This document shows, piece by piece, positions 16,191 to 51,318 of a stretch of 64,000 nt of DNA. The position numbers and the translations under genes were made by a program. The stretch is from Bacillota bacterium. Its GTDB lineage: Bacteria > Bacillota > Limnochordia > DTU087. Every line of letters begins with the position of its first letter. Position 1 is the first letter of the stretch. The stretch is from contig JAAYQZ010000032.1 in NCBI GenBank assembly GCA_012519025.1, forward strand, positions 7 to 64,006. Direction: 5' to 3'. The notes under the pieces were generated by a model. That model ran no database searches. It was not told the DNA's origin and worked only from the letters and a program-made list of their open reading frames with translations.

Positions 16191-16586
16191 TTACTTATGA
16201 TCCATATCTCTACTTGCCACAAGATCAATCCCTGTCCCCAGCAGGTTTTCGACAACTACAGCCCCGGTTTTGATCGGGGCCTTGAGCTCGATATCGGCCA
16301 AGGCGGTCATAGCTTCATAGAGCAGTTCTTTGGGAATAGCCTCAGTTGTCCGCACTGGCAGCAGTGGCAAAGTGCCTTCAGCGATTTTGACAGTAGTTGT
16401 CAAAACCCGCACAGGATTAAGGACTTCATTTCTTCCGTACTCCTCACCTCTGCGGCAGTCGGCTCCTGTAACTTCAATTAAATCGCCGACAATCTTAACT
16501 TCCAGTTGGCAGCCGGTGGGGCATACAATACAAGTCATGTTTCGAATTTCTTCTTTGACCGCGGTGGTAGCTTTTGTGTCTTTCAT
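16191..16586 (-). CDS. DUF1667 domain protein (accessory subunit of GlpA-like flavoenzyme cluster)
   Basis: CIVCPTGCQLEV motif and a size of ~130 aa. Overlaps the stop of the upstream oxidoreductase gene by 4 nt. Confidence 0.75.
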   Translation of the reverse strand: MKDTKATTAVKEEIRNMTCIVCPTGCQLEVKIVGDLIEVTGADCRRGEEYGRNEVLNPVRVLTTTVKIAEGTLPLLPVRTTEAIPKELLYEAMTALADIELKAPIKTGAVVVENLLGTGIDLVASRDMDHK

Positions 16587-19355: not shown

Positions 19356-19619
19356 CCACTTCACCTCTTCATTTGGTATGTGAGAATGCAAAAAGCTCCC
19401 AAGATCCAGGGTACACAAATACCCCCGGCATCTCAGGAACTTCTCCATGTCTCCTGTCCTGATGTTCCAGGTATCGTTGAATTGTTGCTTGATTCAATTC
19501 TACAACTAAAATCAAAGATTGGCAAGGTTAATCTGCCATTTGACCCATCTCCACGCGGTTAAACCCTGTTTTTGGTATCCTTGCGGAGTCTAATGCATAA
19601 TCTCCTATAAAAGCAAAAA

Positions 19620-20477: not shown

Positions 20478-21452
20478 TTGAGTGTGATTAATATTCACCG
20501 GCTGGACGAGCTGGAGATAAAAATGCTGACCCATCTGCAGCGAGATGGGCGCAGCTCTTACACATCGTTAGCTGAAAGGTGTGATGTGGCGGAGGGCACC
20601 ATTCGCAAGCGCTTGCGCAGGCTCCAAAACCGGGGTGTTTTGCGCATAAAAGGGGTTGCCGATCCTGCCCGCACCGGTATGGATACCGCGGCTGTTGTGT
20701 GGCTCCGTGTGGAGCGGGGTAAGCTAATGGATGTGGCCGCGCAGATTACGGCCCTGCATCATGCCCATTACGTTGCATATACCACCGGTGCTTCGGATAT
20801 TTTAGCTATTGTTACATTATCGTCCCAGGACGAATTGATGCGGTTTTTGACTTATGATCTTGGCTCAATCAAAAATCTAACGGAAGTTGAGACCTCAATG
20901 GTCCTAAAGACCTACAAACAGCCCTACCGTTGGGCGCCCTGGTCAAGCGGGGCACCGGAAACTTCTGCCGGTGCCGGTGACACTTTTGAGCCGGATGAAA
21001 TTGATTTAAAGATCATCGACTATTTAGAACAAGACGGCCGCATGACCTTTGTCACCATTGCTGAAGCGCTTGGGATTACAGAAAGTACGGTGCGGCGCCG
21101 AGTTACCGCTATTTTAGAAAGCAAAATCATGGAGATAGCATCGATCATCAATCCTGCCCGTGTGGGATACACAACCGCGGCCATGATTGGAATCAAGGTC
21201 GAAAGAGCCAGGTTGCAGACTGTCGTACAAGAACTGACCGGGCTTCCCGAAGTCCGGTATCTCGCTCTTTCCACAGGGAAGTATGATCTAATCATTGAGG
21301 TAGTGCAGGAATCTAATGAAAACCTTTTAGATTTTCTCGTAGGACGTTTGGAGGAACTGCCGGGAATAATTCGCACGGACACGCATTTATTGTTGAAGCT
21401 CTCCAAAGAAACTTATAACTGGGGTGTGGCCCACAAACACCAAGCCACTTGA
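20478..21452 (+). CDS. fused tandem Lrp/AsnC-family regulator (two HTH + two RAM-like modules)
   Basis: Two repeats of the Lrp/AsnC pattern: LDELEIKMLTHLQRDGRSSYTSLAERCDVAEGTIRKRLRRLQNRGVL and PDEIDLKIIDYLEQDGRMTFVTIAEALGITESTVRRRVTAILESKIM. Each repeat is followed by a ~70-aa effector-like domain. Confidence 0.75.
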   Translation: MSVINIHRLDELEIKMLTHLQRDGRSSYTSLAERCDVAEGTIRKRLRRLQNRGVLRIKGVADPARTGMDTAAVVWLRVERGKLMDVAAQITALHHAHYVAYTTGASDILAIVTLSSQDELMRFLTYDLGSIKNLTEVETSMVLKTYKQPYRWAPWSSGAPETSAGAGDTFEPDEIDLKIIDYLEQDGRMTFVTIAEALGITESTVRRRVTAILESKIMEIASIINPARVGYTTAAMIGIKVERARLQTVVQELTGLPEVRYLALSTGKYDLIIEVVQESNENLLDFLVGRLEELPGIIRTDTHLLLKLSKETYNWGVAHKHQAT

Positions 21453-21515
21453 TCATATATATGATAATATGCAGTAAAATAAATATTGAACTGTTCGGGA
21501 TTGGGAGGGCTAAGG

Positions 21516-22430
21516 TTGCAGAAGAACAAATGGGCAAATATCATTAGGCAGGCGATGCCGGATTTAGCTGTGCTGCTGGATGAACCAATGTCGGCCCATA
21601 CATCCTTTGAGGTTGGTGGACCGGTGGATATTATGGTGATGCCGACGTCTGTTGAGGGCATTTGCCAAGTGCTCAAACTTGCCGGTGAACACGATATTCC
21701 CAGGTATGTGATGGGCAATGGTTCGAACTTGCTGGTCCGCGATGGTGGTATTAGAGGACTTGTCGTAAAATTGGGCGATAATTTCAGCAGTGTTTCAGTA
21801 GAAGACAATATAATTAAGGCCCAAAGCGGGATTCCGTTAACTAAGCTTGCACACACTGCTTGGCAGGCGAGTCTGACAGGTCTTGAATTTGCCTCCGGCA
21901 TTCCCGGCACACTGGGTGGTGCTGTTGCCATGAATGCCGGTGCTTACGGCGGCGAGATGGCTGATGTGATTCTTAATGTCGTTTTGTGTGATCTTGATGG
22001 CACTTCATTTACCTGGGAATTGGCGGAGCTGGATTTGGGGTATCGTCAAAGCCGGGTCAGACGGGAAAAACTGGTAGCACTGGAAGCCGTTTTACAGCTG
22101 GAATTTGGTGATGATCATGCCATCAGAGTCCTTATGGATGATTTGAATCGGCGCAGGCGGGAAAAGCAGCCCCTTAGTCTTGCCAGTGCCGGAAGCACCT
22201 TTAAGCGCCCTCCCAACGGATATGCCGCTAAAATGATAGATGAGGCCGGCCTTAGAGGTGTGTGCGTCGGTAATGCCCAGGTGTCGGAGCTTCACTGCGG
22301 TTTTGTGGTAAACCGCGGCAAAGCCACAGCAAAAGAGCTATTGGAATTAATTGAGGTAGTGCGGAAGCAGGTTTACGAAAGATTCCACGTTGAGTTGGAA
22401 CTCGAAGTACAGGTTATAGGAGAAGATTGA
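21516..22430 (+). CDS. murB: UDP-N-acetylenolpyruvoylglucosamine reductase
   Basis: TSFEVGGPVD, GNGSNLLV, AGSTFKRP and HCGFVVN motifs. TTG 21516 follows GGGAGGG by 6 nt, whereas the ORF track begins at 21486. Confidence 0.9.
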   Translation: MQKNKWANIIRQAMPDLAVLLDEPMSAHTSFEVGGPVDIMVMPTSVEGICQVLKLAGEHDIPRYVMGNGSNLLVRDGGIRGLVVKLGDNFSSVSVEDNIIKAQSGIPLTKLAHTAWQASLTGLEFASGIPGTLGGAVAMNAGAYGGEMADVILNVVLCDLDGTSFTWELAELDLGYRQSRVRREKLVALEAVLQLEFGDDHAIRVLMDDLNRRRREKQPLSLASAGSTFKRPPNGYAAKMIDEAGLRGVCVGNAQVSELHCGFVVNRGKATAKELLELIEVVRKQVYERFHVELELEVQVIGED

Positions 22431-22658: not shown

Positions 22659-23432
22659 TTGATGTCGGAATTTCAACTTAAAAGAGATATTATCGAAGTG
22701 GGTCGGCGTATATACAACAGCGGATTTGTTGCCGCAAATGATGGCAACATCAGTGTGCGCCTCAGCGACAAGCTCATATTAACGACACCTACCGGTGTAA
22801 GCAAAGGTTTCATGACACCGGATATGATTGTCACCTGTGATATGGATGGCAATGTAGTCAGCGGCAGTTGGCGACCTTCCTCAGAGTTAAAGATGCATTT
22901 GGCTGTCTACAAGGCCAGAGAGGATGTAAAATCAGTTGTTCACGCCCATCCTCCTTATGGAACGGCTTTTGCGGTGGCCGGTTTCGCGCTGGAAAAACCA
23001 ATCATGCCGGAGGTTGTGATTAATTTAGGTTGGGTGCCTTTAACTCAATATGGGACACCATCTACTGAGGAGATCCCCGATGCTGTCCTGCCGTATCTCC
23101 CCCGCCATGACGCTTTTTTACTGCAGAACCATGGGGCTCTCACCGTAGGTTCTGATCCGTACAATGCGCTTTTTAAGATGGAGACCTTGGAGATGGGTGC
23201 CAAGATCAGCTTGCTCGCGAGGTTATTGGGAGGCGAAAAAGAGATCAGTCCTCCGGATGTGGACAGGCTGATTGATCTAAGACAAAGCATGAACATGCCG
23301 GGGATGCACCCGGGACTGGAAAGCACCGCTCAAAACCAGGCCCCGGTTGAAAACAGTGTGACAGGGCTTGATGAGAAGCGTTTGCGGGAGATTGTCACTA
23401 ATGTAGTAAAAGAGGTAATAAAAAATAGTTAA
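22659..23432 (+). CDS. class II (FucA/RhaD-type, zinc) aldolase with C-terminal encapsulation-peptide-like tail
   Basis: Class II aldolase motifs [23 protein letters not shown] and QNHGALTVG. The ~210-aa core is followed by a Pro/Gly/Gln linker and the amphipathic tail [21 protein letters not shown]. Confidence 0.85.
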
Positions 23433-23452
23433 TTGAGAGGGGAGTCTTACTA

Positions 23453-23731
23453 GTGGGTGAAGCCTTAGGTCTTAATGAAACAAAAGGATTGATCGGTGCA
23501 ATTGAAGCTGCAGATGCCATGGTAAAGGCAGCCAATGTGGAACTGGTCGGACATGAAAGAATTGGCTCTGGTTATATTTGTGTTATGGCGCGGGGCGATG
23601 TTGGAGCCATTCGAGCGGCAGTTGAAGCCGGCAGTGCGGCGGCCGCTAAAGTCTCCGAAGTTGTAGCGGCTCATATCATTCCCCGGCCCCATGCCGATGT
23701 TGAGCAGGTAATGTTATCCCGTGCCAAATAG
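23453..23731 (+). CDS. BMC-H shell protein (PduA/EutM-type hexamer)
   Basis: Canonical single BMC domain: [30 protein letters not shown]...[13 protein letters not shown]...HIIPRPH. Confidence 0.9.
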
Positions 23732-23816
23732 CATTCTCAAGTGACCTTGGCAGAAGGGAGGGAAGCCGCACCCTGCTGCTTACATTTGTCAGTAATCGGG
23801 GTGTCGTGCTTATACT

Positions 23817-25214
23817 GTGCCACTTAACGAAGAACGAATCAGTGCCATTGTAAAGGAAGTTGTAAAACAGCTCACCGCATCCAGGCATATTCCGGATATT
23901 GTTGCAGGCGATAACGGAATTTTTGATGATGTGGATAGTGCAGTCAAGGCCGCGGCAGCGGCTCAAAAAGAGCTTGCGGCAATGTCTATCGCCCAGCGGG
24001 AGACGATTGTTGGGGCCATCCGCGGGGCAGGAGAAAGTAATGCCCAATATTTTGCCAGACGTTCAGTTGATGAAACCGCGTTGGGCAAATATGAACACAA
24101 AGTACAAAAAAACATCAACGCGTCCAGGCTATCTCCCGGTACGGAAGAGCTCGTTCAAACCGTGCAAAATGGTGATCACGGTATAACTATTACCCGCAGA
24201 GCGCCTTACGGCGTGATCGTATCCATTACACCAACAACACACCCGACTCCCATGATTATCAACCATGCCATAATTATGTTGGCCGGGGGCAATACTGTGT
24301 TTTTCTGTCCTCACCCAAGGGCTCAGATGATTTCAAGGGAAGCCATTCAAATATTAAATCAAGCGATTATTGCTGCCGGCGGGCCTGCAAACTGTTTGGT
24401 GGCAGTGAAAGAGGCGACTCTGGATGCAGTCAATGCTGCCTCAAGTCACCCTTTAGTCGACATGGTGACAGCAGCCGGTGGGCCGGGGGTTGTGAAAGCA
24501 GCACTCAGCTCAGGTAAAAAGGCAATAGCAGCCGGTGCAGCCAACCCTCCTGTAGTTGTAGACGAAACCGCAGATATTGCCAAAGCCGCGCGGGATATAG
24601 TGGAAAGTGCGTGGTTTGATAACAACATCTTATGTATCGGGGAAAAGACTGTTTTTGCTGTGGACACTATAGCGGAGACACTGCTTCAGCATATGCAAAA
24701 GCATGGAGCTCATCTGTTGACAGACGATGAAGCCAGGCGGGTCACCGAACTTATCGTTAGGGACGATCATATTGTTGGTGAATGGGTTGGCAAAGATGCG
24801 TCACTTATCCTGCAGGAGGTGGGTATCACACCCGGGGAAGGTATGGTAGGTGCGGTGATGGTTGTCCCGTACGAACACCCGCTGGTCAAGATTGAACAAA
24901 TGCTGCCCATCTTGCCTTTGGTGAAAACAACCGATTTTGCCCAAGGGCTGCAGCTGGCATATGGGACAGAGCAGGGGTTTCGCCATACTGCTGTAATCCA
25001 TTCTCAAAATGTGGAGCGGATTTCACTGTTTGCAAAAACTATGCAGACCACTATTGTCGTTGTCAATGGGCCTGCTTTTGCGTCGCTGGGTATTGATGGG
25101 GATGCTAAATTCGGTCATACGATTGCAAGCCCCACAGGAGAAGGTATCTGCACCACAGCAACTTTCACAAGGCAGCAAAACGTGACAATGGCCGGAGGCC
25201 TCACATTCGCCTGA
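23817..25214 (+). CDS. CoA-acylating aldehyde dehydrogenase (PduP/EutE family) with N-terminal encapsulation-peptide-like helix
   Basis: GAANPPVVVDETAD and the catalytic-Cys context FDNNILCIGEK. The N-terminus MPLNEERISAIVKEVVKQL is amphipathic. Confidence 0.9.
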   Translation: MPLNEERISAIVKEVVKQLTASRHIPDIVAGDNGIFDDVDSAVKAAAAAQKELAAMSIAQRETIVGAIRGAGESNAQYFARRSVDETALGKYEHKVQKNINASRLSPGTEELVQTVQNGDHGITITRRAPYGVIVSITPTTHPTPMIINHAIIMLAGGNTVFFCPHPRAQMISREAIQILNQAIIAAGGPANCLVAVKEATLDAVNAASSHPLVDMVTAAGGPGVVKAALSSGKKAIAAGAANPPVVVDETADIAKAARDIVESAWFDNNILCIGEKTVFAVDTIAETLLQHMQKHGAHLLTDDEARRVTELIVRDDHIVGEWVGKDASLILQEVGITPGEGMVGAVMVVPYEHPLVKIEQMLPILPLVKTTDFAQGLQLAYGTEQGFRHTAVIHSQNVERISLFAKTMQTTIVVVNGPAFASLGIDGDAKFGHTIASPTGEGICTTATFTRQQNVTMAGGLTFA

Positions 25215-25277
25215 CAGCGGTGCTTGATTTTGATCCAATAATACTAAGCAGGCAGCCGGATATTTGAGGTGAATTGG

Positions 25278-26636
25278 TTGGGGCAGTTAATGGAAAGAAA
25301 CACCATTATCCAAAGGGTCAAATCAGCAGGAGTAGTTGGTGCCGGTGGTGCCGGTTTTCCCACCCATGTGAAACTGGCCGGTTGGGCAGATACTGTAATC
25401 GCCAATGGGGCGGAGTGTGAGCCTTTGCTTGCAGTTGACAAAGCTCTTTTGGCCGAGCATCCCGAAGAGGTGCTTGCTGGTCTTCAAGCTGCTAAAACGG
25501 CCGTTGGTGCAAGCAAAGTCATAGTTGCGCTCAAAGCCAAACATAAAAGGCTCACAGCTGCATGGGAACGCAAAGCGGCAATATATGCTTGGCTGCAGAT
25601 TATAGGATTGCCGGATGTTTATCCCATAGGAGATGAACATGTGCTTGTTCACGAGCTGTTGGCGCGGACTATACCGCCGGGGGGCATCCCTCCAGATGTA
25701 GGGGCTGTTGTACTGAATATCGAAACACTATACAACATCGGCAGGGCAATGGACGGGATACCGGTAACACACAGCTTTGTAACTGTGACAGGTGCGGTTG
25801 CTTCCGCTAAAACCATGGCTGTCCCTGTGGGAACTGCAGTATGTGATGTTCTAAAGTTGGTGCAGCCGCTGCATGGACCGGGTGATTTTGCCGTAGTTGA
25901 AGGCGGCCCCATGATGGGGCGCTTGCTTCTTGATCTTAAAGAGCCGATTACCAAGACTACAAAGGGTCTGATTGTGCTGCCCAAAACCCACCAGGTGATC
26001 AGTAATTTTCACTCCAAATCCGAAGCCTTTAAACACCAATTCAGCGTCTGCAGCCAATGCACCATGTGTACCGACTTGTGTCCTCGCCATCAGCTCAACC
26101 ACCCGATTGCGCCCCACAGGATAATGCGGGCCCTTATAGGTGGGGAAGAGGTTGTAAACGCATTCAAGTCCAGCGAAGTCCTGCAGGGTGCATTGTTTTG
26201 CAGCGAATGTGGAATTTGTGATATGTTTGCTTGTTTTATGGGTTTATCGCCTCGCACTGTCAACCAGTTTTTAAAGGCAAAATGGACAGGTTTGCGGCCT
26301 GAATCTAAGCCTGATTGCCGACGGCCTGTTTTTGGAGGCAATTTGATTCCCACAGCTCGGCTGCTGCATCGTTTGGGTTTATCAAATTGGGAAAGTCCCA
26401 CAGCGCTGATGCCGTACACGGCAGCGCCTTCTAGTGTAAGGATCAAGTTAAAGCAACAGATTGGTTTACCAGCTCATCCCGTGGTTGCAGAGGGAGATCA
26501 AGTAAGTTTCGGTGAAATAATTGGGAAGGTGTCTGCGGAGGGTCTGGGAGCCTGTGTACATGCCAGTATCGGTGGAGTTGCTGTATCTGTCCAAAACGAT
26601 GAAATTCTAATCAGGCGGTGGGACCATGACACATAA
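25278..26636 (+). CDS. PduS/RnfC-like Fe-S flavoprotein (NuoF-like nucleotide/FMN motif, 2x[4Fe-4S], C-terminal barrel-sandwich domain), copy 1
   Basis: GVVGAGGAGFPTHVKL (NuoF/RnfC-type motif) and NGAECEPLL. Cys clusters CSQCTMCTDLCP and CSECGICDMFAC. The C-terminal GDQVSFGEIIGKVSAEGLGACVHASIGG resembles the RnfC N-terminal hybrid barrel. The likely start is TTG 25278, 6 nt after GAGGTG. Confidence 0.8.
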   Translation: MGQLMERNTIIQRVKSAGVVGAGGAGFPTHVKLAGWADTVIANGAECEPLLAVDKALLAEHPEEVLAGLQAAKTAVGASKVIVALKAKHKRLTAAWERKAAIYAWLQIIGLPDVYPIGDEHVLVHELLARTIPPGGIPPDVGAVVLNIETLYNIGRAMDGIPVTHSFVTVTGAVASAKTMAVPVGTAVCDVLKLVQPLHGPGDFAVVEGGPMMGRLLLDLKEPITKTTKGLIVLPKTHQVISNFHSKSEAFKHQFSVCSQCTMCTDLCPRHQLNHPIAPHRIMRALIGGEEVVNAFKSSEVLQGALFCSECGICDMFACFMGLSPRTVNQFLKAKWTGLRPESKPDCRRPVFGGNLIPTARLLHRLGLSNWESPTALMPYTAAPSSVRIKLKQQIGLPAHPVVAEGDQVSFGEIIGKVSAEGLGACVHASIGGVAVSVQNDEILIRRWDHDT

Positions 26637-27195
26637 TGCCCTTTGTTCCAACTTTGTTGATGCACTGGCTGTAGTGGAGTTTAGAAGCATTGCGCGGGGT
26701 TTGGAATGCGTAAACAGCTTGTTGAAAAACTTTCCGGTTGAATTGGTTATCTTGAAAACACTTTGCCCGGGTAAAATTTTGGCGTCTTTCACCGGAGAAA
26801 TTGCTGCTGTGCAAAATGCACTTGAGACAGCCAAAAATGGTGATTTAACTTATATTGATGATTTTATGCTGGGCAACCCGGTGCCCCAGTTGATAGCGGC
26901 TGTGCGGGGCGTTACCCCCGCCGCTGACCATGGAGCCTTAGGAGTGATGGAAACTTTCACAGCCAGTCAAGGTTTTGTGGCTGCAGATACAGCTGTTAAG
27001 GCTTCGGGAGTCAGCTTAGTCAAGATACATATCGCCAGGGGATTGGCCGGCAAAGCGCACATATATCTTACCGGCAGTCTGGGACAAGTAGAAGCTGCCA
27101 TTGCTGCCGTAGAAGAAAGGTTTCACCCTCAGGTGCTGGGAGAGCAGACTATCGTTGCTTCACCGGATCCGAGAACCTGGGAGGCAGTATGGTAA
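26626..27195 (+). CDS. BMC-T shell protein, PduT-like (tandem BMC domains, conserved pore Cys), paralog 1
   Basis: Two BMC repeats. KTLCPGKILASFTGEI aligns with the Salmonella PduT KTICPGKFLLMLGGDI segment, which carries the [4Fe-4S]-ligating Cys. Overlaps the upstream stop by 11 nt. Confidence 0.85.
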   Translation: MTHNALCSNFVDALAVVEFRSIARGLECVNSLLKNFPVELVILKTLCPGKILASFTGEIAAVQNALETAKNGDLTYIDDFMLGNPVPQLIAAVRGVTPAADHGALGVMETFTASQGFVAADTAVKASGVSLVKIHIARGLAGKAHIYLTGSLGQVEAAIAAVEERFHPQVLGEQTIVASPDPRTWEAVW

Positions 27196-27230
27196 TCAGT
27201 TCGCGACATAGAGTGCGTGGGGAGGAAGAT

Positions 27231-28439
27231 ATGCTCACCTTAGTACTTAATTGCGGCGGTTCGTCGGTCAAATATCAATTAGTGGAAATGCCTGCTGAGA
27301 AAGTGATTGCCCGGGGTGATGTCCAGCGCATCGGCAGTCATAACGCAGATTTCCGGCAGGAAGTTCGGGGTAAAACTATCTTGCAACGCACTTTACCGGT
27401 AGCAGACCACAGTGCTGCCATCGGACTGGCATTGGAAACATTAGCCCATCCAGAGCACAGAGTGATCGAGGATTTTCGGCAGATCGATGCCGTGGGTCAC
27501 AGAGTAGTCCACGGCGGTGAAAAATGTACGGGCTCACTTTTAGTCACCAAACAGGTTATCGATGTTTTAAAAGAGTTTTACGATCTTGCACCTTTACACA
27601 ATCCACCTAATGTGGAAGGTATTGAGGCATGCAGCAAACTGATGCCCAAAACCCCCCAAGTGGCTGTTTTTGACTCAAGTCTGCATCAGACTGTTCCCGC
27701 CCGCGCACACATTTATGCCATTCCTTACGAGTATTATGAAAAACACAGAGTGCGGCGTTACGGGTTTCACGGAATTACTTTCCGTTATATGACCAACCGG
27801 GCCGCGGAGCTTTTAAACAGACCCTTGGAAGACTTGAAAATTGTTAATCTGATGCTTGGCAGCGGCACTACGGCTTGTGCTTTTAAAAACGGTAAATCCG
27901 TGGATGTAAGTACAGGGCTCACACCTACGGAGGGGCTTATCCAATCGACCCGCTCAGGTGATCTCGATCCCCTGGTTGTGACTTATTTGATGAGACAGGA
28001 ATCTCTAGATGCTGATGCCGTCGATTTGATCTTGAACCGGGAAAGCGGCTGGTTCGGCATTTCAGGTGTCAGCAGTGACTTAAGAGATGTTTTGGAGGCT
28101 AGTGAAAGCGGCCATGCCAGAGCGAAATTAGCTGTAGATGCTTTTGCGTATCGGACTAAAAAGTACATCGGGGCCTATGCTGCGGCCATGGGGGGCATCG
28201 ATGTTTTGATCTTTTCCGGAGGGGTGGGAGAAAGATCCCCCGAGATTAGAGAGGCGGTTTGTCAAGACTTGGAGTTTTTAGGAATACAGCTGGATGCCGT
28301 GGCCAATTACTCCGAGGAAGTTGAGAAAAATATTGCACAGTCGGGCTCTTCAGTTGATGTTTTAGTGATTCCCACAGATGAAGAAATCGTCATTGCCAGA
28401 GATACTTTTGCTATTGTAAGGCGGGAAGGCTATGACTGA
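27231..28439 (+). CDS. ackA: acetate (acyl-phosphate) kinase
   Basis: LVLNCGGSSVKYQL, GHRVVHGG, HNPPN, FHGITF and SGGVGE motifs. ATG 27231 lies 5 nt after GGAGG. No encapsulation-like extension is visible. Confidence 0.9.
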   Translation: MLTLVLNCGGSSVKYQLVEMPAEKVIARGDVQRIGSHNADFRQEVRGKTILQRTLPVADHSAAIGLALETLAHPEHRVIEDFRQIDAVGHRVVHGGEKCTGSLLVTKQVIDVLKEFYDLAPLHNPPNVEGIEACSKLMPKTPQVAVFDSSLHQTVPARAHIYAIPYEYYEKHRVRRYGFHGITFRYMTNRAAELLNRPLEDLKIVNLMLGSGTTACAFKNGKSVDVSTGLTPTEGLIQSTRSGDLDPLVVTYLMRQESLDADAVDLILNRESGWFGISGVSSDLRDVLEASESGHARAKLAVDAFAYRTKKYIGAYAAAMGGIDVLIFSGGVGERSPEIREAVCQDLEFLGIQLDAVANYSEEVEKNIAQSGSSVDVLVIPTDEEIVIARDTFAIVRREGYD

Positions 28440-28977
28440 GGCAGTGGGGATTCTGGAGTTGCAAGGAATTGGCCCCGGTTATTTGGCAGCACATTGGATT
28501 GACAAACACACAGCTATTGCCATGATATTTACAGGAACTATCTGCCCCGGTCACTTTTTAATTATGTTTGCCGGTACAGTGGCTGATGTTGCCTGGGCGC
28601 AAGAACAGGCTGCCGGTTTGACGGAATCTGCCGTTATTTCCCAAGGGTTGCTGACCAACATCCACCCTGAAGTACTGCCGGCAGTACAAAATCTGCAAAA
28701 GAAGCAGCCGCAAGGTGCATTAGGGGTGTTTGAGGTTTTAGGGGCGGCATCGGCAGTGGTTGCAGCGGACAGCATGGTTAAAGGTGCCGCGGTGGAACTA
28801 TTCGACATACGCTTTGCCGGTGGTATGGGAGGAAAGGCTGTAATACTTTGCCAGGGGAAAGTTGAAGCAGTGGAGGCTGCTTTAGAGCAAGCCGCCCGGG
28901 TTGTGGATGTCAAAAGTTTAGTTGGTACCGCTGTGCTCGCTTCGCCCCATCCCGAACTTTTATCCCACTGGCAGTAG
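28432..28977 (+). CDS. BMC-T shell protein, PduT-like, paralog 2
   Basis: AVGILELQGIG...GTICPGHFLIMFAGTVADV...NIHPEVLPAV, then a second BMC repeat ALGVFEVLGAASAVVAADSMVKG. Overlaps the ackA stop by 8 nt. Confidence 0.85.
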   Translation: MTEAVGILELQGIGPGYLAAHWIDKHTAIAMIFTGTICPGHFLIMFAGTVADVAWAQEQAAGLTESAVISQGLLTNIHPEVLPAVQNLQKKQPQGALGVFEVLGAASAVVAADSMVKGAAVELFDIRFAGGMGGKAVILCQGKVEAVEAALEQAARVVDVKSLVGTAVLASPHPELLSHWQ

Positions 28978-28995
28978 ATAAAGGAGGCGATACTC

Positions 28996-29289
28996 TTGCA
29001 GGTGGCAAGGGTCGTGGGAAATGTTGTGGCTACCCAAAAAGATCCCAAATTGGTCGGATTTACGCTCCAGCTTGTACAGCCCATTGATATAACTACAGAA
29101 ATGCCTACAGGCAGCCCGCTTGTGGCAGCAGATACGGTGGGGGCCGGTGTTCAAGACATAGTTATGATCGTAGGGGGCAGTTCTGCTCGGTTGACTATAA
29201 AAACAGCCGATTCCCCTGTGGATGCTGCTATAGTCGGTATTATCGATACGGTGAATATTTTAGGGGAGACAATGTACAGCCGCAGCTGA
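28996..29289 (+). CDS. BMC-P vertex protein (EutN/CcmL family), copy 1
   Basis: MQVARVVGNVVATQKD...VAADTVGAGVQDIVMIVGGSSAR...VDAAIVGIID. AAGGAGG RBS 8 nt before the TTG. Confidence 0.9.
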   Translation: MQVARVVGNVVATQKDPKLVGFTLQLVQPIDITTEMPTGSPLVAADTVGAGVQDIVMIVGGSSARLTIKTADSPVDAAIVGIIDTVNILGETMYSRS

Positions 29290-29351
29290 GTACCGTCGGT
29301 TTGAAAGGAGAAATGGAGGCTCGGTATTGAGGACAGTCTCCGCGAGAAACT

Positions 29352-29615
29352 ATGAAATTCGGTAAAGTCATCGGCAGTGTCACTGCCACAATCAAAGATC
29401 CGGGTCTGCAAGCACTCAAGTTCCACGTTGTTCAGGCCTTGGATGAAAAGTTGAGGCCCTTACCATCCACTTATATTGCTGCAGATGCTGTGGGGCAGGT
29501 CGGACTTGATGATATTGTGACAGTGGTGTTTAGCCGCGATGCGGCAGAGGCCTTTTTGACAATCACACCTCCTGTGGATGCCAGTATTGTCGGGATAGTG
29601 GCTCAAACGGTTTAG
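29352..29615 (+). CDS. BMC-P vertex protein (EutN/CcmL family), copy 2
   Basis: MKFGKVIGSVTATIKD...IAADAVGQVGLDDIV...VDASIVGIV. Confidence 0.9.
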   Translation: MKFGKVIGSVTATIKDPGLQALKFHVVQALDEKLRPLPSTYIAADAVGQVGLDDIVTVVFSRDAAEAFLTITPPVDASIVGIVAQTV

Positions 29616-29666
29616 TTTGAATGTGCAGTGCCAATAGAGAGGTTAGGGCATAAGGAGTGCAAAACT

Positions 29667-29915
29667 GTGTATCTTGCCGAGGTCATAGGGCCGGTTGTTT
29701 GTACAGTAAAACACCAGGCTTACAATGGGAAAACCATGCTTTTGATCGTCCCTCTTGAAGGAGAAGCCGCTGGTTATGAGATTGCAGTTGATTATGTTGG
29801 GGCTGGTGTAGGTGATATCGTGCTTGCCGGGGGAGCCCCGGGAGCAGCTCAGGACATATTTGGACTAGAACAAGCACCAATCAGAACATTGATTATGGGA
29901 ATTATTGATCCTTGA
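29667..29915 (+). CDS. BMC-P vertex protein (EutN/CcmL family), copy 3
   Basis: (V)YLAEVIGPVVCTVKH...VDYVGAGVGDIVLAGG...TLIMGIID. GTG 29667 lies 7 nt after AAGGAGTG, whereas the ORF track begins at 29628. Confidence 0.85.
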   Translation: MYLAEVIGPVVCTVKHQAYNGKTMLLIVPLEGEAAGYEIAVDYVGAGVGDIVLAGGAPGAAQDIFGLEQAPIRTLIMGIIDP

Positions 29916-29965
29916 GTCTTAAGCCCACAACAAGCCGGCCAACGAAACTAAAGGAGGCGGCACAC

Positions 29966-30631
29966 TTGAATGAAGCGGATTTACGCATTCTTGTAGATGA
30001 AATCACCCAACAGATTTTAGCAGCAAATCAAAGGGAAAGCCTTTTAAAGCAAGAGGAAGATTGGCTGCCGGTCGGTGTTTCAGTGCGCCATGTACACATT
30101 TCATCCCATGATCTTGAAGTATTGTATGGTCCCGGCTGCACACTGACACCGCTGCGGGAGCTTTACCAGGTGGGTGAGTATGCGTGTAAGGAAGTTGTCG
30201 CCTTGGTGGGCCCAAGAATGCGGGCATTGGAAAGTGTACGGATTCTCGGGCCTGTGCGGGAAAAAACTCAAGTGGAAGTATCTAGAACAGACGCTGTTTA
30301 CCTCGGTATTGATCCGCCGGTGCGGGCATCGGGAGACCTTACCGGCTCCAGCCCCATTACATTGGTGGGGCCCAAGGGTACGCTGGTCCTGCAAGAAGGT
30401 GCCATTGTCGCCAACCGCCATATTCATATGAACAGCACTGACGCGAACCGATATGGTGTTGTTGATAACGACATTGTCAAGGTAGAAGTGCTCGGTGATA
30501 AAGGACTGGTTTTCAACAACGTTCAAATCCGTGTTCAAGACTCCTTCCGTTTGCAGATGCATGTCGATACCGATGATGCCAATGCTTCTGGAATCACAAA
30601 CGGGGCCAAAGCTCGGATCCTGCCAAAATAA
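29966..30631 (+). CDS. pduL: phosphate acyltransferase PduL with N-terminal encapsulation-peptide-like helix
   Basis: Two PduL repeats with metal-binding His motifs: VGVSVRHVHIS and ANRHIHMNS. TTG 29966 lies 8 nt after AAGGAGG and gives the N-terminus MNEADLRILVDEITQQILAAN. Confidence 0.9.
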   Translation: MNEADLRILVDEITQQILAANQRESLLKQEEDWLPVGVSVRHVHISSHDLEVLYGPGCTLTPLRELYQVGEYACKEVVALVGPRMRALESVRILGPVREKTQVEVSRTDAVYLGIDPPVRASGDLTGSSPITLVGPKGTLVLQEGAIVANRHIHMNSTDANRYGVVDNDIVKVEVLGDKGLVFNNVQIRVQDSFRLQMHVDTDDANASGITNGAKARILPK

Positions 30632-30675
30632 AGAACCTGCATCTTTCACAGTATGATTTGCAAGGAGGCCCGCCG

Positions 30676-32064
30676 GTGGAAGTGAGCATAAATACACTGC
30701 TTAGCAAAGTCAAAGATGCCGGAGTAGTTGGCGCCGGCGGCGCAGGATTTCCCACCCATGTGAAGCTCGCCGGTGAAGTAGATACCATTGTGATCAATGG
30801 GGCAGAATGTGAGCCTTTGCTGGATGTGGATATACAGCTTTTGGAAAATGAGGCAGAATCGCTGCTTACCGGACTTGAGCTTTTAGTTCGCATACTGGGG
30901 GCCAAAGAGGGCATTGTTGCTTTAAAGGCCAAACATGAAAAAGCAAAAGAGCGCCTTAGGGAAGTGTTGGCCGGAAAGGATAAGGCAAGCAAGCTCAGAT
31001 TGCATTTGCTGGATGACTTTTATCCTGTCGGTGATGAGCCCATTTTGCTTTATGAGGTGGTGGGGAAGGTAGTGCCTGAGGGCAATATTCCCCTTGTTTT
31101 AAAATGCCTTGTAATCAATGTGGAGACATTGAAAAATATTATAAGGGCAATAGATGGCAAACCAGTTATTACAACTTGTGTGACAGTAGCAGGAAGAGTA
31201 AAAGAGCCCGGCACTTTTGAAATACCGGTGGGAGCCTCTATCAAATGGCTTTTAGAGGCTGTCGGCGGAGCTGATTTAGACGATTATGGGGTAATGGTCG
31301 GTGGTCCCATGACCGGCACTGTTTTAAGCAAAGCAGAAGTAGAACAAAACACATCAAAGCCGGGCCACATGCCGGTTATCACAAAAACCACAAAAGCTGT
31401 TTTGGTGCTGCCGGCAGACCACAGTATCTTTCGCCATCACGCTCTAAATATAGGTGTTGTTTTACAAAGGGCCCAATCGGCATGCTGCCAATGCAGGCTT
31501 TGCACAGATCTATGTCCCCGCTACTTGTTGGGTTATGAAATTGAGCCCCACCTTGCTTTAAATAGGATCAACCACGGACAGACCCAGGATCCGGCAGCGA
31601 TTACCCATGCGTTTTTGTGTTCAGACTGTGGTGTATGTGAGCTTTATGCTTGTCCTGTCGGTCTCTCGCCGAGGCGAATCTACCAGGCTTTCAAAGAAGA
31701 GCTGCTCAAACAAGGTGTAGCAAATCCCCATATAAAAGCAAAACCACCCAAGGGGCCAAGGGAGGCCTGGGCCGGTCGCCACATCCCCACCAACCAACTG
31801 TTGTTGAGATTGGGACTTGGGGGATATGAGCAGAAAGCCCCCTGGAGACAGTTAAAAGTCCTGCCTTCCCGAGTAACCATTCCCTTAAAACAGCATGTGG
31901 GAGTACCGGCGGAGCCTTTGGTTCAGAAAGGTGAAATAGTCGAGGCCGGTCAATTAATAGGGGAACCACCGGTTTCTGCACTGGGTGCATCAATACACTC
32001 AAGCATCAATGGTCGAATTTCAGAAGTCACTGAAAAAGCCGTGGTGATTCAAATTGATGGTTAG
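30676..32064 (+). CDS. PduS/RnfC-like Fe-S flavoprotein, copy 2
   Basis: GVVGAGGAGFPTHVKL and NGAECEPLL. Cys clusters CCQCRLCTDLCP and CSDCGVCELYACP. C-terminal barrel-like KGEIVEAGQLIGEPPVSALGASIHSSINGRI. GTG 30676 lies 7 nt after AAGGAGG. Confidence 0.8.
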   Translation: MEVSINTLLSKVKDAGVVGAGGAGFPTHVKLAGEVDTIVINGAECEPLLDVDIQLLENEAESLLTGLELLVRILGAKEGIVALKAKHEKAKERLREVLAGKDKASKLRLHLLDDFYPVGDEPILLYEVVGKVVPEGNIPLVLKCLVINVETLKNIIRAIDGKPVITTCVTVAGRVKEPGTFEIPVGASIKWLLEAVGGADLDDYGVMVGGPMTGTVLSKAEVEQNTSKPGHMPVITKTTKAVLVLPADHSIFRHHALNIGVVLQRAQSACCQCRLCTDLCPRYLLGYEIEPHLALNRINHGQTQDPAAITHAFLCSDCGVCELYACPVGLSPRRIYQAFKEELLKQGVANPHIKAKPPKGPREAWAGRHIPTNQLLLRLGLGGYEQKAPWRQLKVLPSRVTIPLKQHVGVPAEPLVQKGEIVEAGQLIGEPPVSALGASIHSSINGRISEVTEKAVVIQIDG

Positions 32065-32692
32065 TGCCTCAAAACAGCACAAAAAGGGTCGTCAGCCATT
32101 TGATGCTCTAGGATTCCTGGAGATTCAGGGGGCAGCCCGGGGAATACAGGCTTTGGATGCGGGATGTAAAACAGCTTCAATTAATGTGCTAAAAGCTAAT
32201 GTTGCCTGCCCTGATAAATACACCATACTTTTCACTGGGTCTGCAGAAGATGTCGCGGCTGCATATAGCGCGGCTGCAGCCGCGATCGGGGCAGGCTATT
32301 ATGACGGCTGTCAGATCGGGCGAGTGCATCCAGATTTAGCCCATGGTCTAATGGGTATTTTTGGTCATACCGGTTGTGAGCGAAATGCGGGTTGGGAATC
32401 TGCACCCAAAGGTGAGAGCGATACCCCAAAAGGCAGCGATGCTGTAGGCGTGCTTGAGACTTTGTCAATTGCCTCGGGGATCAAAACAGCCGATTGTGCC
32501 CTTAAAGCAGGGTATGTAGTACTTAAAGAACTGCATTTAGGTTATGCACTCGGCGGCCGCAGTTATTGGCTGATAACCGGCGACACAGCTGCAGTACAGG
32601 CTGCGATGGAAGCTGCTGCAGACTGCGGTAAGGAACTTGGAAGGCTTGGGAGTTATTCCTTAATTTTGCAGCCGGGAACGCAAGTGTCTTAA
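32054..32692 (+). CDS. BMC-T shell protein, PduT-like with enlarged inter-domain linker, paralog 3
   Basis: Repeat 1 is ALGFLEIQGAARG...KANVACPDKYTILFTGSAEDV, with the Cys at the PduT position. A ~35-aa linker follows (GHTGCERNAGWESAPKGESDTPKGS). Repeat 2 is AVGVLETLSIASGIKTADCALKAG. Overlaps the upstream stop. Confidence 0.75.
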   Translation: MMVSASKQHKKGRQPFDALGFLEIQGAARGIQALDAGCKTASINVLKANVACPDKYTILFTGSAEDVAAAYSAAAAAIGAGYYDGCQIGRVHPDLAHGLMGIFGHTGCERNAGWESAPKGESDTPKGSDAVGVLETLSIASGIKTADCALKAGYVVLKELHLGYALGGRSYWLITGDTAAVQAAMEAAADCGKELGRLGSYSLILQPGTQVS

Positions 32693-32806
32693 AGCCAGCA
32701 CGCCAGGTCGGCAGTTGCGTCTTGGTGCCAGAATTGAGCGAAAGTTGATTAAAAGAAGGAGCGCAAAACTCCAGGGAAGAATTATATATTGAGGAGGGTT
32801 AGTGTG

Positions 32807-34039
32807 ATGGTACCGAAGCCCGAACCTAGAATCAAGCGGTTTGAAGAATTGGCATATGGGATGTTTATTCATTGGGGCCTTTACTCTTTGTTGGGTAAGG
32901 GAGAATGGATCATGCACCAGGCGAATATTCCCAAAGAGGAATATGCAAGATTAAAACATGAGTTTCGAGCCGACGAATTCCATGCACGGGCTGTAGCAAA
33001 GCTTGCGCGGACGGCGGGTATGCGCTACATCACAATTACGTCAAGACATCATGATGGTTTCTCTTTATACGATACACGGGGTCTAAGTGATTATGATGCC
33101 CCCAACAGTGCCGCGGGGCGGGATCTGATTGCCGAATTTGTGGAAGGCTGTAATGCAGAAGGGATTTTGCCGTTTTTTTATCATACCACACTGGATTGGT
33201 ATCAGGAAAGTTTTCAGGAGGATTTTACCGGTTATCTGGAGTACTTGAGGAGTTCAGTCAAGCTTTTGTGCACAAACTACGGTAAAATCGGGGGTTTGTG
33301 GTTTGACGGCAATTGGAGCAGGCCTGACGCAGATTGGGAACTTGACGCATTATATGGGCTGATTCGCAAATACCAACCGGAAGCCATGATCATCAACAAC
33401 ACCGGTCTTGAGGCCAGAGGCCGGATAATTCACCATGAGATTGACAGTGTTACCTTTGAGCAGGGACGCCCTTTGCCTTTGGAAAGGGAGGGTATGGAGA
33501 AATATGTTTCCGGCGAAATGTGTCAGACTATGAACCAACACTGGGGGTTAGGAGAGCGAGATTTTGCTTATATGTCGCCCAGGGAGCTGATTGAAAACTT
33601 CGCGGCTTGTCGCAAAGTTGGGGCTAACTATCTGCTGAATGTCGGACCCACCGCTTCCGGCCGTATCCCCGATTATGAAGCTGCCGCACTTTTGCGGGTG
33701 GGACAGTGGATTGAGCTTTATGGCGATTTGATGTATAAAGGCAGACCTACTACAATAAAGGGCTCCGGAGATGACTTTGCCTTAGAATATGACGGCAAAA
33801 TTTATCTGTTTGTGTATAATTTGTCGGTGCGAGGCGACAAAAATGTAGTTCGTATGACTTCGGGCGCTGGTCCACGGCTGTTTACAGATTGGGAGCAGCC
33901 AGTGAGGTGTGTACGCTGGTTGGATAATGATGAGGAACTTGCATTCACCCATGATGCAGACCGAGCATGGTTGGTTGTAGATGCTGCCGGATATCCATAT
34001 GGGACCAATTTGGTTGTGCGAGTGGCAGAGGTGACATAG
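32807..34039 (+). CDS. GH29 alpha-L-fucosidase, no signal peptide
   Basis: YGMFIHWGLYS, ITITSRHHDGFSLYD, GGLWFDGNW and ANYLLNVGP are typical GH29 blocks. The start lies behind a GAGGAGGG RBS. Confidence 0.85.
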   Translation: MVPKPEPRIKRFEELAYGMFIHWGLYSLLGKGEWIMHQANIPKEEYARLKHEFRADEFHARAVAKLARTAGMRYITITSRHHDGFSLYDTRGLSDYDAPNSAAGRDLIAEFVEGCNAEGILPFFYHTTLDWYQESFQEDFTGYLEYLRSSVKLLCTNYGKIGGLWFDGNWSRPDADWELDALYGLIRKYQPEAMIINNTGLEARGRIIHHEIDSVTFEQGRPLPLEREGMEKYVSGEMCQTMNQHWGLGERDFAYMSPRELIENFAACRKVGANYLLNVGPTASGRIPDYEAAALLRVGQWIELYGDLMYKGRPTTIKGSGDDFALEYDGKIYLFVYNLSVRGDKNVVRMTSGAGPRLFTDWEQPVRCVRWLDNDEELAFTHDADRAWLVVDAAGYPYGTNLVVRVAEVT

Positions 34040-34080: not shown

Positions 34081-34107
34081 GCTGACCTTGTGGTCAGCCT
34101 TTTCTTT
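34081..34107 (+). terminator. rho-independent terminator closing the BMC/fucosidase operon
   Basis: GCTGACC-ttgt-GGTCAGC stem-loop followed by CTTTTCTTT. Confidence 0.75.
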
Positions 34108-36025: not shown

Positions 36026-37840
36026 ATGGCCTATCAAATGGAGCATGAGCAGCATACAGCACCTGTTGACCGCGGTATGCTATTGCGGTTGGTTAGATAT
36101 CTGGGGCCGCATAAAAAGCAGCTGGCTGCAGCTGTTGCTTTAATGCTCGGTGTCTCAGCAACTACTTTGGCTATTCCTTATTTGAGTAAAATAGCAATTG
36201 ATAACTATATTAGTTCCGGCGATCTACGCGGTGTAGACAAGATTGCCCTTTCCATGGGCGCGCTCTTTGTTATCAGCTGGATTTTATCGTACAGAAGAAG
36301 TTTTGTGATGGCATCAATGGGACAAAGAATTATTTATACTATGCGCCAGGGTCTATATGAGCATCTGCAGCGTTTATCCTTGCGCTATTACGATAATATG
36401 CAGGTAGGTAGGCTGATTACTCGGCTCACCAGCGATATCGATGCATTGAATGAACTTCTAAGTGGGGGTGTCATCAACTTTATCAGCGATACAGTGACTC
36501 TGGTCGGCATTTTGGCAATCATGTTTACCATGAATGTCCGCCTGACTGCTTTGACTTTGGTTACTGTGCCATTCCTGCTTTATATGGTGACCGGTTTTCG
36601 GATGCGCATTTTTCTGGCGCAAAGACGGGTGCGTGAAAAAGTAGCCGTTGTCAACACCAGTCTGCAGGAGAACATTTCGGGGGTGCGGGTTACCCAGGCG
36701 TTTTCCCGAGAGGAAGAAAACTTGAAGCGCTTTGGAGTGCTCAACGAAGACAGTTACGATGCCGCCGTGAAGGCAGTTGGCATTTTCGCTTTCTTTTGGC
36801 CCATTATCGATTTGATTTCGGTCGCGGGCACAGTGATTGTGCTTTGGTTCGGCGGGCGTTGGCTTGTGCAGGGCGATCTCACTGTGGGAGAAATGGTGGC
36901 CTTTATCAGCTATACAGGACAATTCTTCGGGCCCCTTAGAAACCTGGGACAGCTGTTTCGGGTGATTCAAACCGCCATGGCCGGTGCAGAGCGGGTGTTT
37001 GGCATATTGGATACAGAGCCTGAGATTCAGGATAAGCCCGGGGCCGTGGAGCTGCCGACGATTCATGGACATGTGGAATTTGCAGGGGTTCATTTTGCCT
37101 ATGAAGGCGAAGATTATGTTCTGGAAGATATTGACCTTGATGTACAGCCCGGTGAAACAATTGCTTTTGTGGGACATACTGGAGCCGGCAAAACTTCAAT
37201 GATTAACATACTTTGCCGATTTTATGACATTCAAAAAGGCAGTATCAAGATAGATGGCCTCGATATTCGCGATGTTACTCAAAAATCCCTGCGTTCTCAA
37301 ATTGGGTTAGTTTTGCAGGAACCGTTTTTGTTTTCAGGCACTGTGCGGGAAAATTTGTTGTACGGTAATCCTTACGCCGGTGAAGAAGATATGTTGGAAG
37401 TTACAAAAGCCTTGGGAATCCATGACTTCATAGAGCGCCTCAGCGATGGATACGATACTGACGTACAGGAGCGGGGCAGCAAATTGTCCTTAGGCCAAAG
37501 GCAGTTGGTATCATTTGCAAGGGCTATTATCAATGATCCAAGGATTTTGGTATTGGATGAGGCCACTGCTAATATCGATACCCAAACAGAGCAAATTATC
37601 CAAACTGCACTTGAGCATATGCTAGCCGGCCGTACTTCGTTTGTCATTGCCCACAGGCTGACTACTATTCAAAAGGCCGATAAGATCGTTGTCATTGATC
37701 ACGGGCGCATCGTCGAAATGGGCACCCACGAGGAACTGTTGGAGCAAGATGGAGTTTACCACAGGCTGTATATGGTACAGTTTGCCCATGCTGTGGAATC
37801 CGAGAAAGCCCTAAGTTACGAGGCTGATAGCAAATCCTGA
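36026..37840 (+). CDS. ABC exporter, fused permease/ATPase (heterodimer partner 2)
   Basis: Walker A GHTGAGKTS, signature LSLGQRQL and Walker B ILVLDEAT. GGGGAG RBS. Confidence 0.9.
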   Translation: MAYQMEHEQHTAPVDRGMLLRLVRYLGPHKKQLAAAVALMLGVSATTLAIPYLSKIAIDNYISSGDLRGVDKIALSMGALFVISWILSYRRSFVMASMGQRIIYTMRQGLYEHLQRLSLRYYDNMQVGRLITRLTSDIDALNELLSGGVINFISDTVTLVGILAIMFTMNVRLTALTLVTVPFLLYMVTGFRMRIFLAQRRVREKVAVVNTSLQENISGVRVTQAFSREEENLKRFGVLNEDSYDAAVKAVGIFAFFWPIIDLISVAGTVIVLWFGGRWLVQGDLTVGEMVAFISYTGQFFGPLRNLGQLFRVIQTAMAGAERVFGILDTEPEIQDKPGAVELPTIHGHVEFAGVHFAYEGEDYVLEDIDLDVQPGETIAFVGHTGAGKTSMINILCRFYDIQKGSIKIDGLDIRDVTQKSLRSQIGLVLQEPFLFSGTVRENLLYGNPYAGEEDMLEVTKALGIHDFIERLSDGYDTDVQERGSKLSLGQRQLVSFARAIINDPRILVLDEATANIDTQTEQIIQTALEHMLAGRTSFVIAHRLTTIQKADKIVVIDHGRIVEMGTHEELLEQDGVYHRLYMVQFAHAVESEKALSYEADSKS

Positions 37841-50339: not shown

Positions 50340-50351
50340 GGTTGTACCAAC

Positions 50352-50906: not shown

Positions 50907-51318
50907 CGATCTCCTCTACTTCATCTTGAGCAGGTAAAATATTGATTAAAAGGCGGTTCGGCAAACAAATGATTGATTGGTAAGGGAGCGAGATCCAGCC
51001 CTGCTTTACATCAATCTGATCAGGGCATGATGCCTCAATGACACGTATGCGTCCATTCTCCACTCTGATAGTGTTGTAGTGACCTCCACCCAATTCCACG
51101 GTGAATTCATATGGAGCTTTCACTTTTTTAAGATCAACTCTGTGCACTTCTTGACCATCTGATGTAACAACGGCCACGGAAGCAGCAGTTTTGTTGCCGC
51201 TGACTGTAATGGCGGTACCTAAGGCAAAAATTGCGATGAGAACGGTGTAGATGATCAGATCACCGGGTTTGAAGTAGCGATTTTGCCAATTTCTGTGGTA
51301 CTTATTCATAGAGTTCAA
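50890..51318 (-). CDS. NusG domain II-like (DUF1312) membrane-anchored protein
   Basis: N-terminal TM segment (LIIYTVLIAIFALGTAITV) followed by a ~100-aa beta domain with ENGRIRVIEASCPDQIDVKQGWI. The family is recalled from frequent pairing with ApbE and Gx genes. Confidence 0.6.
   Translation of the reverse strand: MNSMNKYHRNWQNRYFKPGDLIIYTVLIAIFALGTAITVSGNKTAASVAVVTSDGQEVHRVDLKKVKAPYEFTVELGGGHYNTIRVENGRIRVIEASCPDQIDVKQGWISLPYQSIICLPNRLLINILPAQDEVEEIDGIAF

Follow-up and report, generated by a model that had tools for sequence, protein, structure and literature searches.

Background

The closest described relatives of the operon reported here are bacterial microcompartment (BMC) loci in which a PduS-like flavoprotein is encoded next to a PduT-like tandem-domain shell protein. 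In a survey of more than 7,000 BMC loci, PduS homologs were found in 2,172, many of them in BMC types using no B12, and in 97 % of those loci the homolog adjoins a PduT-like gene with the motif CP(G/S)K (Sutter et al., PNAS 2024, PMC11626177). PduS was renamed MNdh and PduT was renamed BMC-T^SE in that work, and the regeneration of NAD+ by electron export via the pore cluster was proposed, a mechanism supported by activity assays, electron paramagnetic resonance (EPR), voltammetry, modelling and X-ray footprinting (PMC11626177). Speculation of the same kind had been published earlier (Axen 2014; Ferlez 2019; Zeng 2021). The pair is present without an alcohol dehydrogenase (AlcDh) in 361 loci (PMC11626177). 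Here, we describe a metabolosome operon at positions 22659-32692 (+) of a 64-kb stretch of contig JAAYQZ010000032.1 (assembly GCA_012519025.1) of an uncultured Bacillota bacterium, this stretch being referred to as the window.

The locus is a further member of the MNdh/BMC-T^SE metabolosomes without an alcohol dehydrogenase, and the mechanism it points to has already been published. A preliminary description of this DNA had proposed that NAD+ is regenerated by electrons leaving the compartment through Fe-S pores. All sequence-level predictions of this proposal that were examined held, and since homologs have already been shown experimentally to export electrons in this way (Sutter et al. 2024, PMC11626177), the proposal is a rediscovery. 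We consider it probable, at roughly 0.7, that the operon encodes an aldolase-type compartment, similar to those of Planctomycetes and Verrucomicrobia (PVM), that recycles NAD+ via MNdh/BMC-T^SE electron export and not via an alcohol dehydrogenase. Its unusual point is the presence of two deeply diverged MNdh/BMC-T^SE pairs together with an orphan tandem-BMC protein that has a pore cysteine, an arrangement that is conserved and apparently rare.

Two MNdh/BMC-T^SE pairs in a single operon

The metabolosome genes form a single compact operon with short or overlapping junctions, and all genes named in the preliminary description were found where it had placed them. In operon order, they are:

22659..23432, + strand: class II aldolase, the signature enzyme (PF00596 over residues 10-184 of 257)
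23453..23731, + strand: BMC-H hexamer shell protein (PF00936, 91.8 bits)
23817..25214, + strand: CoA-acylating aldehyde dehydrogenase (AldDh) of the EutE/PduP type, the NADH producer (NF011927, 547 bits)
25269..26636 (gene-caller start 25278), + strand: MNdh1 (PduS-like 1), predicted metabolosome NADH dehydrogenase (PF01512, PF13534, C-terminal PF13375)
26626..27195, + strand: BMC-T1, a canonical BMC-T^SE with CPGK (two PF00936 stretches; alignment to PduT 3pac)
27189..28439, + strand: acetate/propionate-family kinase, AckA (PF00871, 438 bits; TIGR00016, 441 bits)
28432..28977, + strand: BMC-T2, an orphan PduT-like BMC-T with CPGH (two PF00936 stretches; alignment to PduT 3pac/3n79)
28996-29289, 29352-29615 and 29628-29915, + strand: three BMC-P pentamer genes of the EutN/CcmL type (PF03319 for the first gene)
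29912..30631, + strand: PduL-type phosphotransacylase (PF06130 over residues 53-228; NF011652, 255 bits)
30658..32064, + strand: MNdh2 (PduS-like 2), predicted NADH dehydrogenase (PF01512, PF10531, PF13534, C-terminal PF13375)
32054..32692, + strand: BMC-T3, BMC-T^SE-like with CPDK (two PF00936 stretches; alignment to 3nwg/3pac)

In both the MNdh1/BMC-T1 and the MNdh2/BMC-T3 pair, the reading frames overlap by 11 nt. The three BMC-P paralogs are 27-42 % identical, and the triplet is kept in every complete related locus.

Both PduS-like proteins match PF01512 (Complex1_51K), PF13534 (Fer4_17) and, at the C-terminus, PF13375 (RnfC_N). An SLBB match (PF10531) was found in MNdh2 and no significant one in MNdh1, whose AlphaFold2 (AF2) model is continuous across this region and matches RnfC. 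The glycine-rich nucleotide/FMN motif GAGGAGFPTHVK and the cysteine clusters CSQCTMCTDLCP / CSECGICDMFAC and CCQCRLCTDLCP / CSDCGVCELYACP reported earlier can be read straight from the translations of the two proteins. All 17 sequences of the clade (11 MNdh1 and 6 MNdh2, window included) have GAGGAGFPT, NGAECEP and both cysteine motifs with their eight cysteines unchanged, and an alignment of 28 sequences likewise shows these motifs to be invariant. Both proteins thus have the domain order of the MNdh class, its glycine-rich FMN/NADH motif, eight cysteines, an adjacent BMC-T gene and an AldDh in the locus. By analogy with characterised homologs, MNdh1 and MNdh2 would oxidise NADH using FMN and two [4Fe-4S] clusters.

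RnfC is the top structural match of these flavoproteins. The AF2 model of MNdh1 (pLDDT 89.9, pTM 0.92) has RnfC chains as its top PDB matches, with a TM score of about 0.62 and a root-mean-square deviation of 2.6-3.3 Å, and the cofactor motifs are the same. In contrast to RnfC, the barrel-sandwich domain is circularly permuted, the second cysteine motif has a one-residue insertion, the partner is a shell protein and no other Rnf subunits are present. The permutation, which had been suspected from the position of the barrel-sandwich segment at the C-terminus, is real, as residues 404-458 of MNdh2 align with residues 31-84 of RnfC and residues 10-238 with residues 119-350 (Rnf structures 7zc6/9eri). 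It is not new, since a circular permutation of RnfC_N has already been described (Sutter et al. 2024, PMC11626177).

The locus shares its basic module with the best characterised example, the MNdh/BMC-T^SE module of the Clostridium botulinum GRM1 locus, where the flavoprotein also has four domains, a permuted RnfC_N, two 4Fe-4S motifs and the FMN/NADH motif (Sutter et al. 2024). As in the 361 loci without AlcDh, a tandem-BMC gene with a pore cysteine follows directly after MNdh and an AldDh is present. Unlike the characterised systems, the operon has two pairs and a third cysteine-pore BMC-T, two of its pore motifs are CPDK (BMC-T3) and CPGH (BMC-T2), and it belongs to an aldolase-type locus of an uncultured Bacillota bacterium. 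With PduS and PduT of Salmonella and Citrobacter, it shares homologous BMC-T proteins with the Cys38 position and the PduS-type domain order. In contrast to these Pdu systems, it contains no diol dehydratase, no B12 recycling genes and no PduQ, and it has three PduT-like genes instead of one.

Pore cysteines of the tandem-BMC shell proteins

The three tandem-BMC proteins had each been described as retaining the cysteine that ligates the cluster in PduT. Their segments KTLCPGKI, GTICPGHF and VACPDKY align on KTICPGKF of Citrobacter PduT (3pac), and the Cys38 position of the characterised PduT structures is occupied by cysteine in all three. The cysteines also match this position in 3nwg and in Salmonella PduT, whose structure 3n79 carries C38S. 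The single-layer tandem PF00936 fold is supported by the top PDB matches of the BMC-T proteins, which are PduT, 3nwg and HO-5812, the matches to PduT structures having E-values of 1e-18 to 1e-29.

Among the orthologs of each family (6-9 per family, 35-57 % identity), the pore cysteine is the sole invariant cysteine, while all other cysteines vary. This conservation exceeds the chance expectation. The residues around it differ between the families. In BMC-T1, C47-P48-G49-K50 is invariant in nine sequences, which always have CPGK. In BMC-T2, C38-P39-G40 is invariant in seven sequences and position 41 varies between H, G, Y and R. In BMC-T3, C52 and K55 are invariant and the overall motif is C[P/S][D/N/G]K, the protein of the window having CPDK and its orthologs CPNK, CSGK or CPGK. 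Of the three proteins in the window, BMC-T1 alone has the full CP(G/S)K motif, and BMC-T1 and BMC-T3 have the lysine together with an adjacent flavoprotein gene. As in the homologs from which this role is taken, a [4Fe-4S] cluster would be held in the pore of the BMC-T trimer.

BMC-T3 is the most divergent of the three. Its AF2 model matches BMC-T^S structures at TM scores of 0.7-0.8 and places the cysteine at the tip of the first beta-hairpin, with a pLDDT of 74.5 and a confidence limited by an alignment of three sequences, the window's own paralogs, which were used because a word-indexed homolog search returned the query alone. Residues ~102-129 (window 32357-32440) of BMC-T3 contain an insertion of about 20 residues in the inter-domain linker that is disordered in the model (pLDDT < 50). 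A longer linker occurs at this site in all BMC-T3 orthologs and is found in neither BMC-T1, BMC-T2 nor PduT. If it faces the cytosol, the modelled insertion might offer an electron acceptor a place to dock.

Related loci and rarity of the doubled module

A scan of the GTDB species genomes with the AldDh yielded 12 syntenic loci, all from uncultured Bacillota, one of them labelled Limnochordia and one Clostridiales DTU087. A metagenome contig (L018) has the same gene order, including a fucosidase in the same position with 75 % identity, so that there are at least 13 related loci in all. The full operon order is kept wherever the contigs are long enough, with protein identities of 35-60 %. The genes adjoining the operon in the window are:

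20478-21452, + strand: tandem (two-module) Lrp/AsnC-type regulator, 5' of the operon (Pfam)
21486-22430, + strand: MurB-like gene, 5' of the operon (Pfam)
32789..34039, + strand: GH29 alpha-L-fucosidase, directly 3' of the operon (PF01120, 212 bits)

The Lrp/AsnC and MurB-like genes also lie directly upstream in most relatives with contigs extending to this region, namely L001-L004, L007-L008, L010-L012 and L018, while L009 has other genes there. The tandem regulator is a candidate for the gene that controls the operon. That a cell-wall gene of the MurB type is kept beside a metabolosome operon is odd.

The preliminary description had called the combination of three PduT-like and two PduS-like proteins striking. 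Its rarity was assessed with 80 metagenome loci with an MNdh homolog at 38-59 % identity. Two MNdh genes were found in one of the 80, the L018 locus of the same clade, and the layout is absent from the other 79, a result that is to be read as an indication and not as a census because the sample is biased to relatives of MNdh2. Twenty loci are flanked by at least 6 kb on either side. None of these has a second MNdh gene, and their PduT-like BMC-T genes number one in 16 loci, two in three and three in none. A precedent for several PduS homologs in one BMC locus is the PDU-like locus of Clostridium kluyveri with its four (Axen et al. 2014). That locus is of another type, a reduced PDU locus lacking both AldDh and AlcDh, and its homologs were not treated as MNdh/BMC-T pairs.

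A recent tandem duplication of the module was considered as the origin of the two pairs and rejected, since the paralogs are as distant from each other as from proteins of unrelated loci. MNdh1 shares 41 % identity with MNdh2, compared with 43-48 % between either of them and the ordinary MNdh of many Firmicutes. BMC-T1, BMC-T2 and BMC-T3 are mutually 26-32 % identical. A rough neighbour-joining tree does not place MNdh1 and MNdh2 as sisters.

No new principle follows from the locus. It is of value as a natural experiment in which two ancient pairs and a third cysteine-pore trimer have been kept over at least 13 loci, and it is suited to studies of cognate MNdh/BMC-T pairing, of the tuning of the cluster potential by the pore motif and of the identity of the cytosolic acceptor.

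Proposed pathway and substrate

In the proposed pathway, the encapsulated aldolase would form dihydroxyacetone phosphate (DHAP) and lactaldehyde by cleaving a deoxy-ketose 1-phosphate, for which L-fuculose and L-rhamnulose 1-phosphate are the most likely candidates. The AldDh would convert the aldehyde into an acyl-CoA while reducing lumenal NAD+ to NADH, PduL would form the acyl-phosphate, and the acetate/propionate-family kinase would use it for substrate-level formation of ATP. MNdh, docked at the lumenal face of the BMC-T^SE trimers, would reoxidise NADH, with electrons passing from NADH to FMN, to the two [4Fe-4S] clusters, to the [4Fe-4S] cluster on the three pore cysteines and finally to a cytosolic acceptor. 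The outward direction of this flow, like Fe-S binding and the oxidation of NADH, is carried over from published work on homologs. Since no alcohol dehydrogenase takes part, all of the aldehyde could enter the ATP-yielding branch.

The encapsulation of these enzymes is suggested by their terminal extensions. The aldolase has a C-terminal extension of about 70 residues with an encapsulation-peptide-like helix at its end, as read off the translation. Such a helix is also found at the N-terminus of the AldDh, whose Aldedh domain begins at residue 37, and in an N-terminal extension of about 50 residues in PduL. Amphipathic helix-like segments are typical of encapsulation peptides, and the appearance of these extensions beyond the Pfam domains is consistent with such a function.

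The enzyme set resembles that of the PVM fucose/rhamnose BMC, which has an aldolase with a C-terminal extension, AldDh, PduL, acetate kinase and a BMC-P triplet, and here a fucosidase is adjacent. The operon differs from PVM loci in its phylum (Bacillota MAGs, metagenome-assembled genomes), in the absence of an 'AlcDh' of the lactate/malate dehydrogenase (LDH/MDH) family from the operon, and in the location of MNdh, which in PVM lies mostly in satellite loci. It is a functional analog of the PVM type and not PVM proper. Aldolase-type (PVM-like) compartments with an MNdh redox module are thereby extended to MAGs labelled Bacillota, Limnochordia or Clostridiales in GenBank. Judging from the isolate names, several of the relatives presumably come from anaerobic digesters.

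A cultured relative with a single-module locus is Hydrogenispora ethanolica (L014, 3147-14515), whose BMC-locus aldolase and AldDh are 56 % and 53 % identical to those of the window, and in which the MNdh module occurs once where it is doubled here. Its locus contains an FGGY kinase, aldolase, AldDh, phosphotransacylase, MNdh, BMC-T, AckA and LarA and no alcohol dehydrogenase, with the FGGY kinase, an RpiR regulator and the LarA lactate racemase in flanking positions. The similarity of the aldolase and AldDh to those of a locus with a sugar kinase and a lactate racemase speaks for lactaldehyde as the probable aldehyde in the window's pathway. H. ethanolica would be a tractable organism for studies of the lactaldehyde-to-lactate pathway and of MNdh function.

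The neighbouring GH29 fucosidase makes fucose the likely source sugar, and the compartments may matter for the turnover of fucose-rich polysaccharides in these organisms. A sulfatase (PF00884 and SGSH_C) is encoded at 13603-15075 in the same neighbourhood, and the two genes together suggest sulfated fucans as an upstream source of the BMC substrate.

Alcohol dehydrogenase and electron acceptor

The preliminary description had stated that the operon lacks an alcohol dehydrogenase although it has an AldDh. A hidden Markov model (HMM) built from Pfam-verified iron-containing alcohol dehydrogenases (Fe-ADHs) matched nothing among the six-frame open reading frames (ORFs) of the 64-kb window or in the related loci, which agrees with this statement. 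It had also been suggested that multiple BMC-T proteins co-occur with the absence of an alcohol dehydrogenase. This link was not borne out in the sampled MNdh loci, as three of the five loci with two BMC-T genes carry an Fe-ADH and 16 of the 20 well-flanked loci, mostly single-module, carry none.

Several observations weigh against export through the pores as the route of NAD+ regeneration, or against the details of the pathway. The sole ADH-family ORF of the window, at 61696-62718 (-) and 29 kb from the operon, encodes a Zn-type medium-chain dehydrogenase/reductase (MDR), and in GRM5 loci the role of the AlcDh is predicted for Zn-ADHs (Axen et al. 2014). The search covered 64 kb of the genome, which makes an alcohol or lactaldehyde reductase elsewhere possible. 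The operon has no ferredoxin or flavodoxin gene that could provide the acceptor. BMC-T2 has neither the lysine of the CP(G/S)K motif nor an adjacent MNdh gene, and BMC-T3 has aspartate where glycine or serine is usual, although the lysine is kept and MNdh2 is adjacent; for these reasons, cluster binding is less certain in both. The substrate is only inferred because the aldolase reaches no NCBIfam equivalog cutoff and no fucose or rhamnose isomerase or kinase (FGGY) was found in the 64-kb window. Finally, the location of both modules in a single operon argues against their condition-specific use.

A candidate for the acceptor was seen in a related locus. In the Limnochordia MAG (L009, 7006-7794), the gene directly upstream of the BMC aldolase encodes a protein of 262 aa that starts with a 2x[4Fe-4S] ferredoxin domain. 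This protein may act as an electron acceptor; no such gene occurs at that position in the window.

Alternative explanations

Alcohol dehydrogenases are present in 1,725 of the 2,172 MNdh loci (PMC11626177), and a different division of labour is conceivable here. NAD+ would be recycled mainly by an alcohol or lactaldehyde reductase whose gene lies elsewhere, and the MNdh/BMC-T modules would be auxiliary, as in Salmonella Pdu, which has both systems. The size of the window and the Zn-MDR gene within it would allow this. However, the Zn-ADH is encoded on the opposite strand at a distance of 29 kb and has no terminal extension, the 13 syntenic relatives gave no Fe-ADH within +/-10 kb, and the conservation of two MNdh modules suggests a heavy dependence on export. 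We therefore regard this explanation as improbable.

Assuming electron export, the question is why two pairs are maintained. Our best guess, inferred from their divergence, is that the pairs MNdh1-T1 and MNdh2-T3 are cognate-specific and sub-functionalised, for example in potential or acceptor, and are not simple dosage copies. A stronger form of non-redundancy, with flavoproteins both inside and on the cytosolic face, or with different acceptors served via pores of different potential (CPGK, CPDK and CPGH), appears doubtful. If it were true, the shell would be a trans-shell NADH:NAD+ or NADH:acceptor wire whose input and output are both defined, and the locus would be the first in which the BMC operon itself supplies the cytosolic half that the MNdh pathway has lacked.

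The specific variant in which one MNdh is lumenal and the other sits on the cytosolic, concave face of BMC-T, so that electrons reach cytosolic NAD+ with no separate acceptor, is unlikely. It would account for the joint conservation of two deeply diverged, co-transcribed pairs and for an operon without an acceptor gene. It would also give a role to the insertion in the inter-domain linker of BMC-T3, a linker that we take to lie on the concave face from the topology of BMC domains. Half of the published AF2 docking solutions put MNdh on the concave face; nevertheless, MNdh co-purifies with intact BMCs and has been modelled as lumenal (Sutter et al. 2024, PMC11626177). The variant is purely inferential, and both MNdh paralogs are equally similar to ordinary MNdh.

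An inward flow, with the Fe-S pores and flavoproteins bringing reducing power into the lumen, is conceivable in principle because modules of the RnfC/NuoF type are reversible. It is very improbable here, as the sole encoded lumenal redox enzyme is the NADH-producing AldDh, no consumer of NADH is encoded, and the potentials measured in homologs favour export (Sutter et al. 2024; Ferlez 2019).

A role of the PduS-like proteins as corrin (cobalamin) reductases in B12 recycling, which was the historical assignment of PduS (Axen et al. 2014), is hardly credible and was rejected, since the operon has no B12-dependent enzyme, adenosyltransferase or cobalamin gene, the window has no cobalamin riboswitch or match to any other Rfam family, and the B12 role is now seen as indirect (Sutter et al. 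2024).

Wider neighbourhood

A scan of the window for promoters and terminators was uninformative, with counts matching the shuffled expectation; the single suggestive terminator lies at 34081-34098, 3' of the fucosidase. A 480-aa ORF at 37816-39258 (-) has no Pfam match at E <= 1e-4.

At 49239-56918, the window encodes a polyprenyl synthetase, a PF07456 membrane protein, a NusG_II protein, a membrane-anchored ApbE FMN transferase, UbiA, UbiD and a type II NADH dehydrogenase (NDH-2) fused to a C-terminal DoxD-like membrane domain. This cluster resembles in part the flavin-based extracellular electron transfer locus of Listeria, for which a link to the redox balance of the eut BMC has been reported (PMC8547011). 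The quinone and flavinylation functions of the cluster could constitute the ultimate electron sink; synteny gives no tie to the BMC operon.

A pair of FAD-dependent oxidoreductases is encoded at 16583-19448 (-), one with a DAO domain and a BFD-like [2Fe-2S] domain and one with Pyr_redox_2, and is conserved in L007 at 1842-4605. The pair presumably resembles clusters of the glycerol-3-phosphate dehydrogenase type and could bear on what becomes of the DHAP that the aldolase releases. Further upstream, at 7246-9426, a 726-aa fusion protein combines an EIIC membrane domain of the phosphotransferase system (PTS) with a C-terminal EAL domain (c-di-GMP phosphodiesterase).

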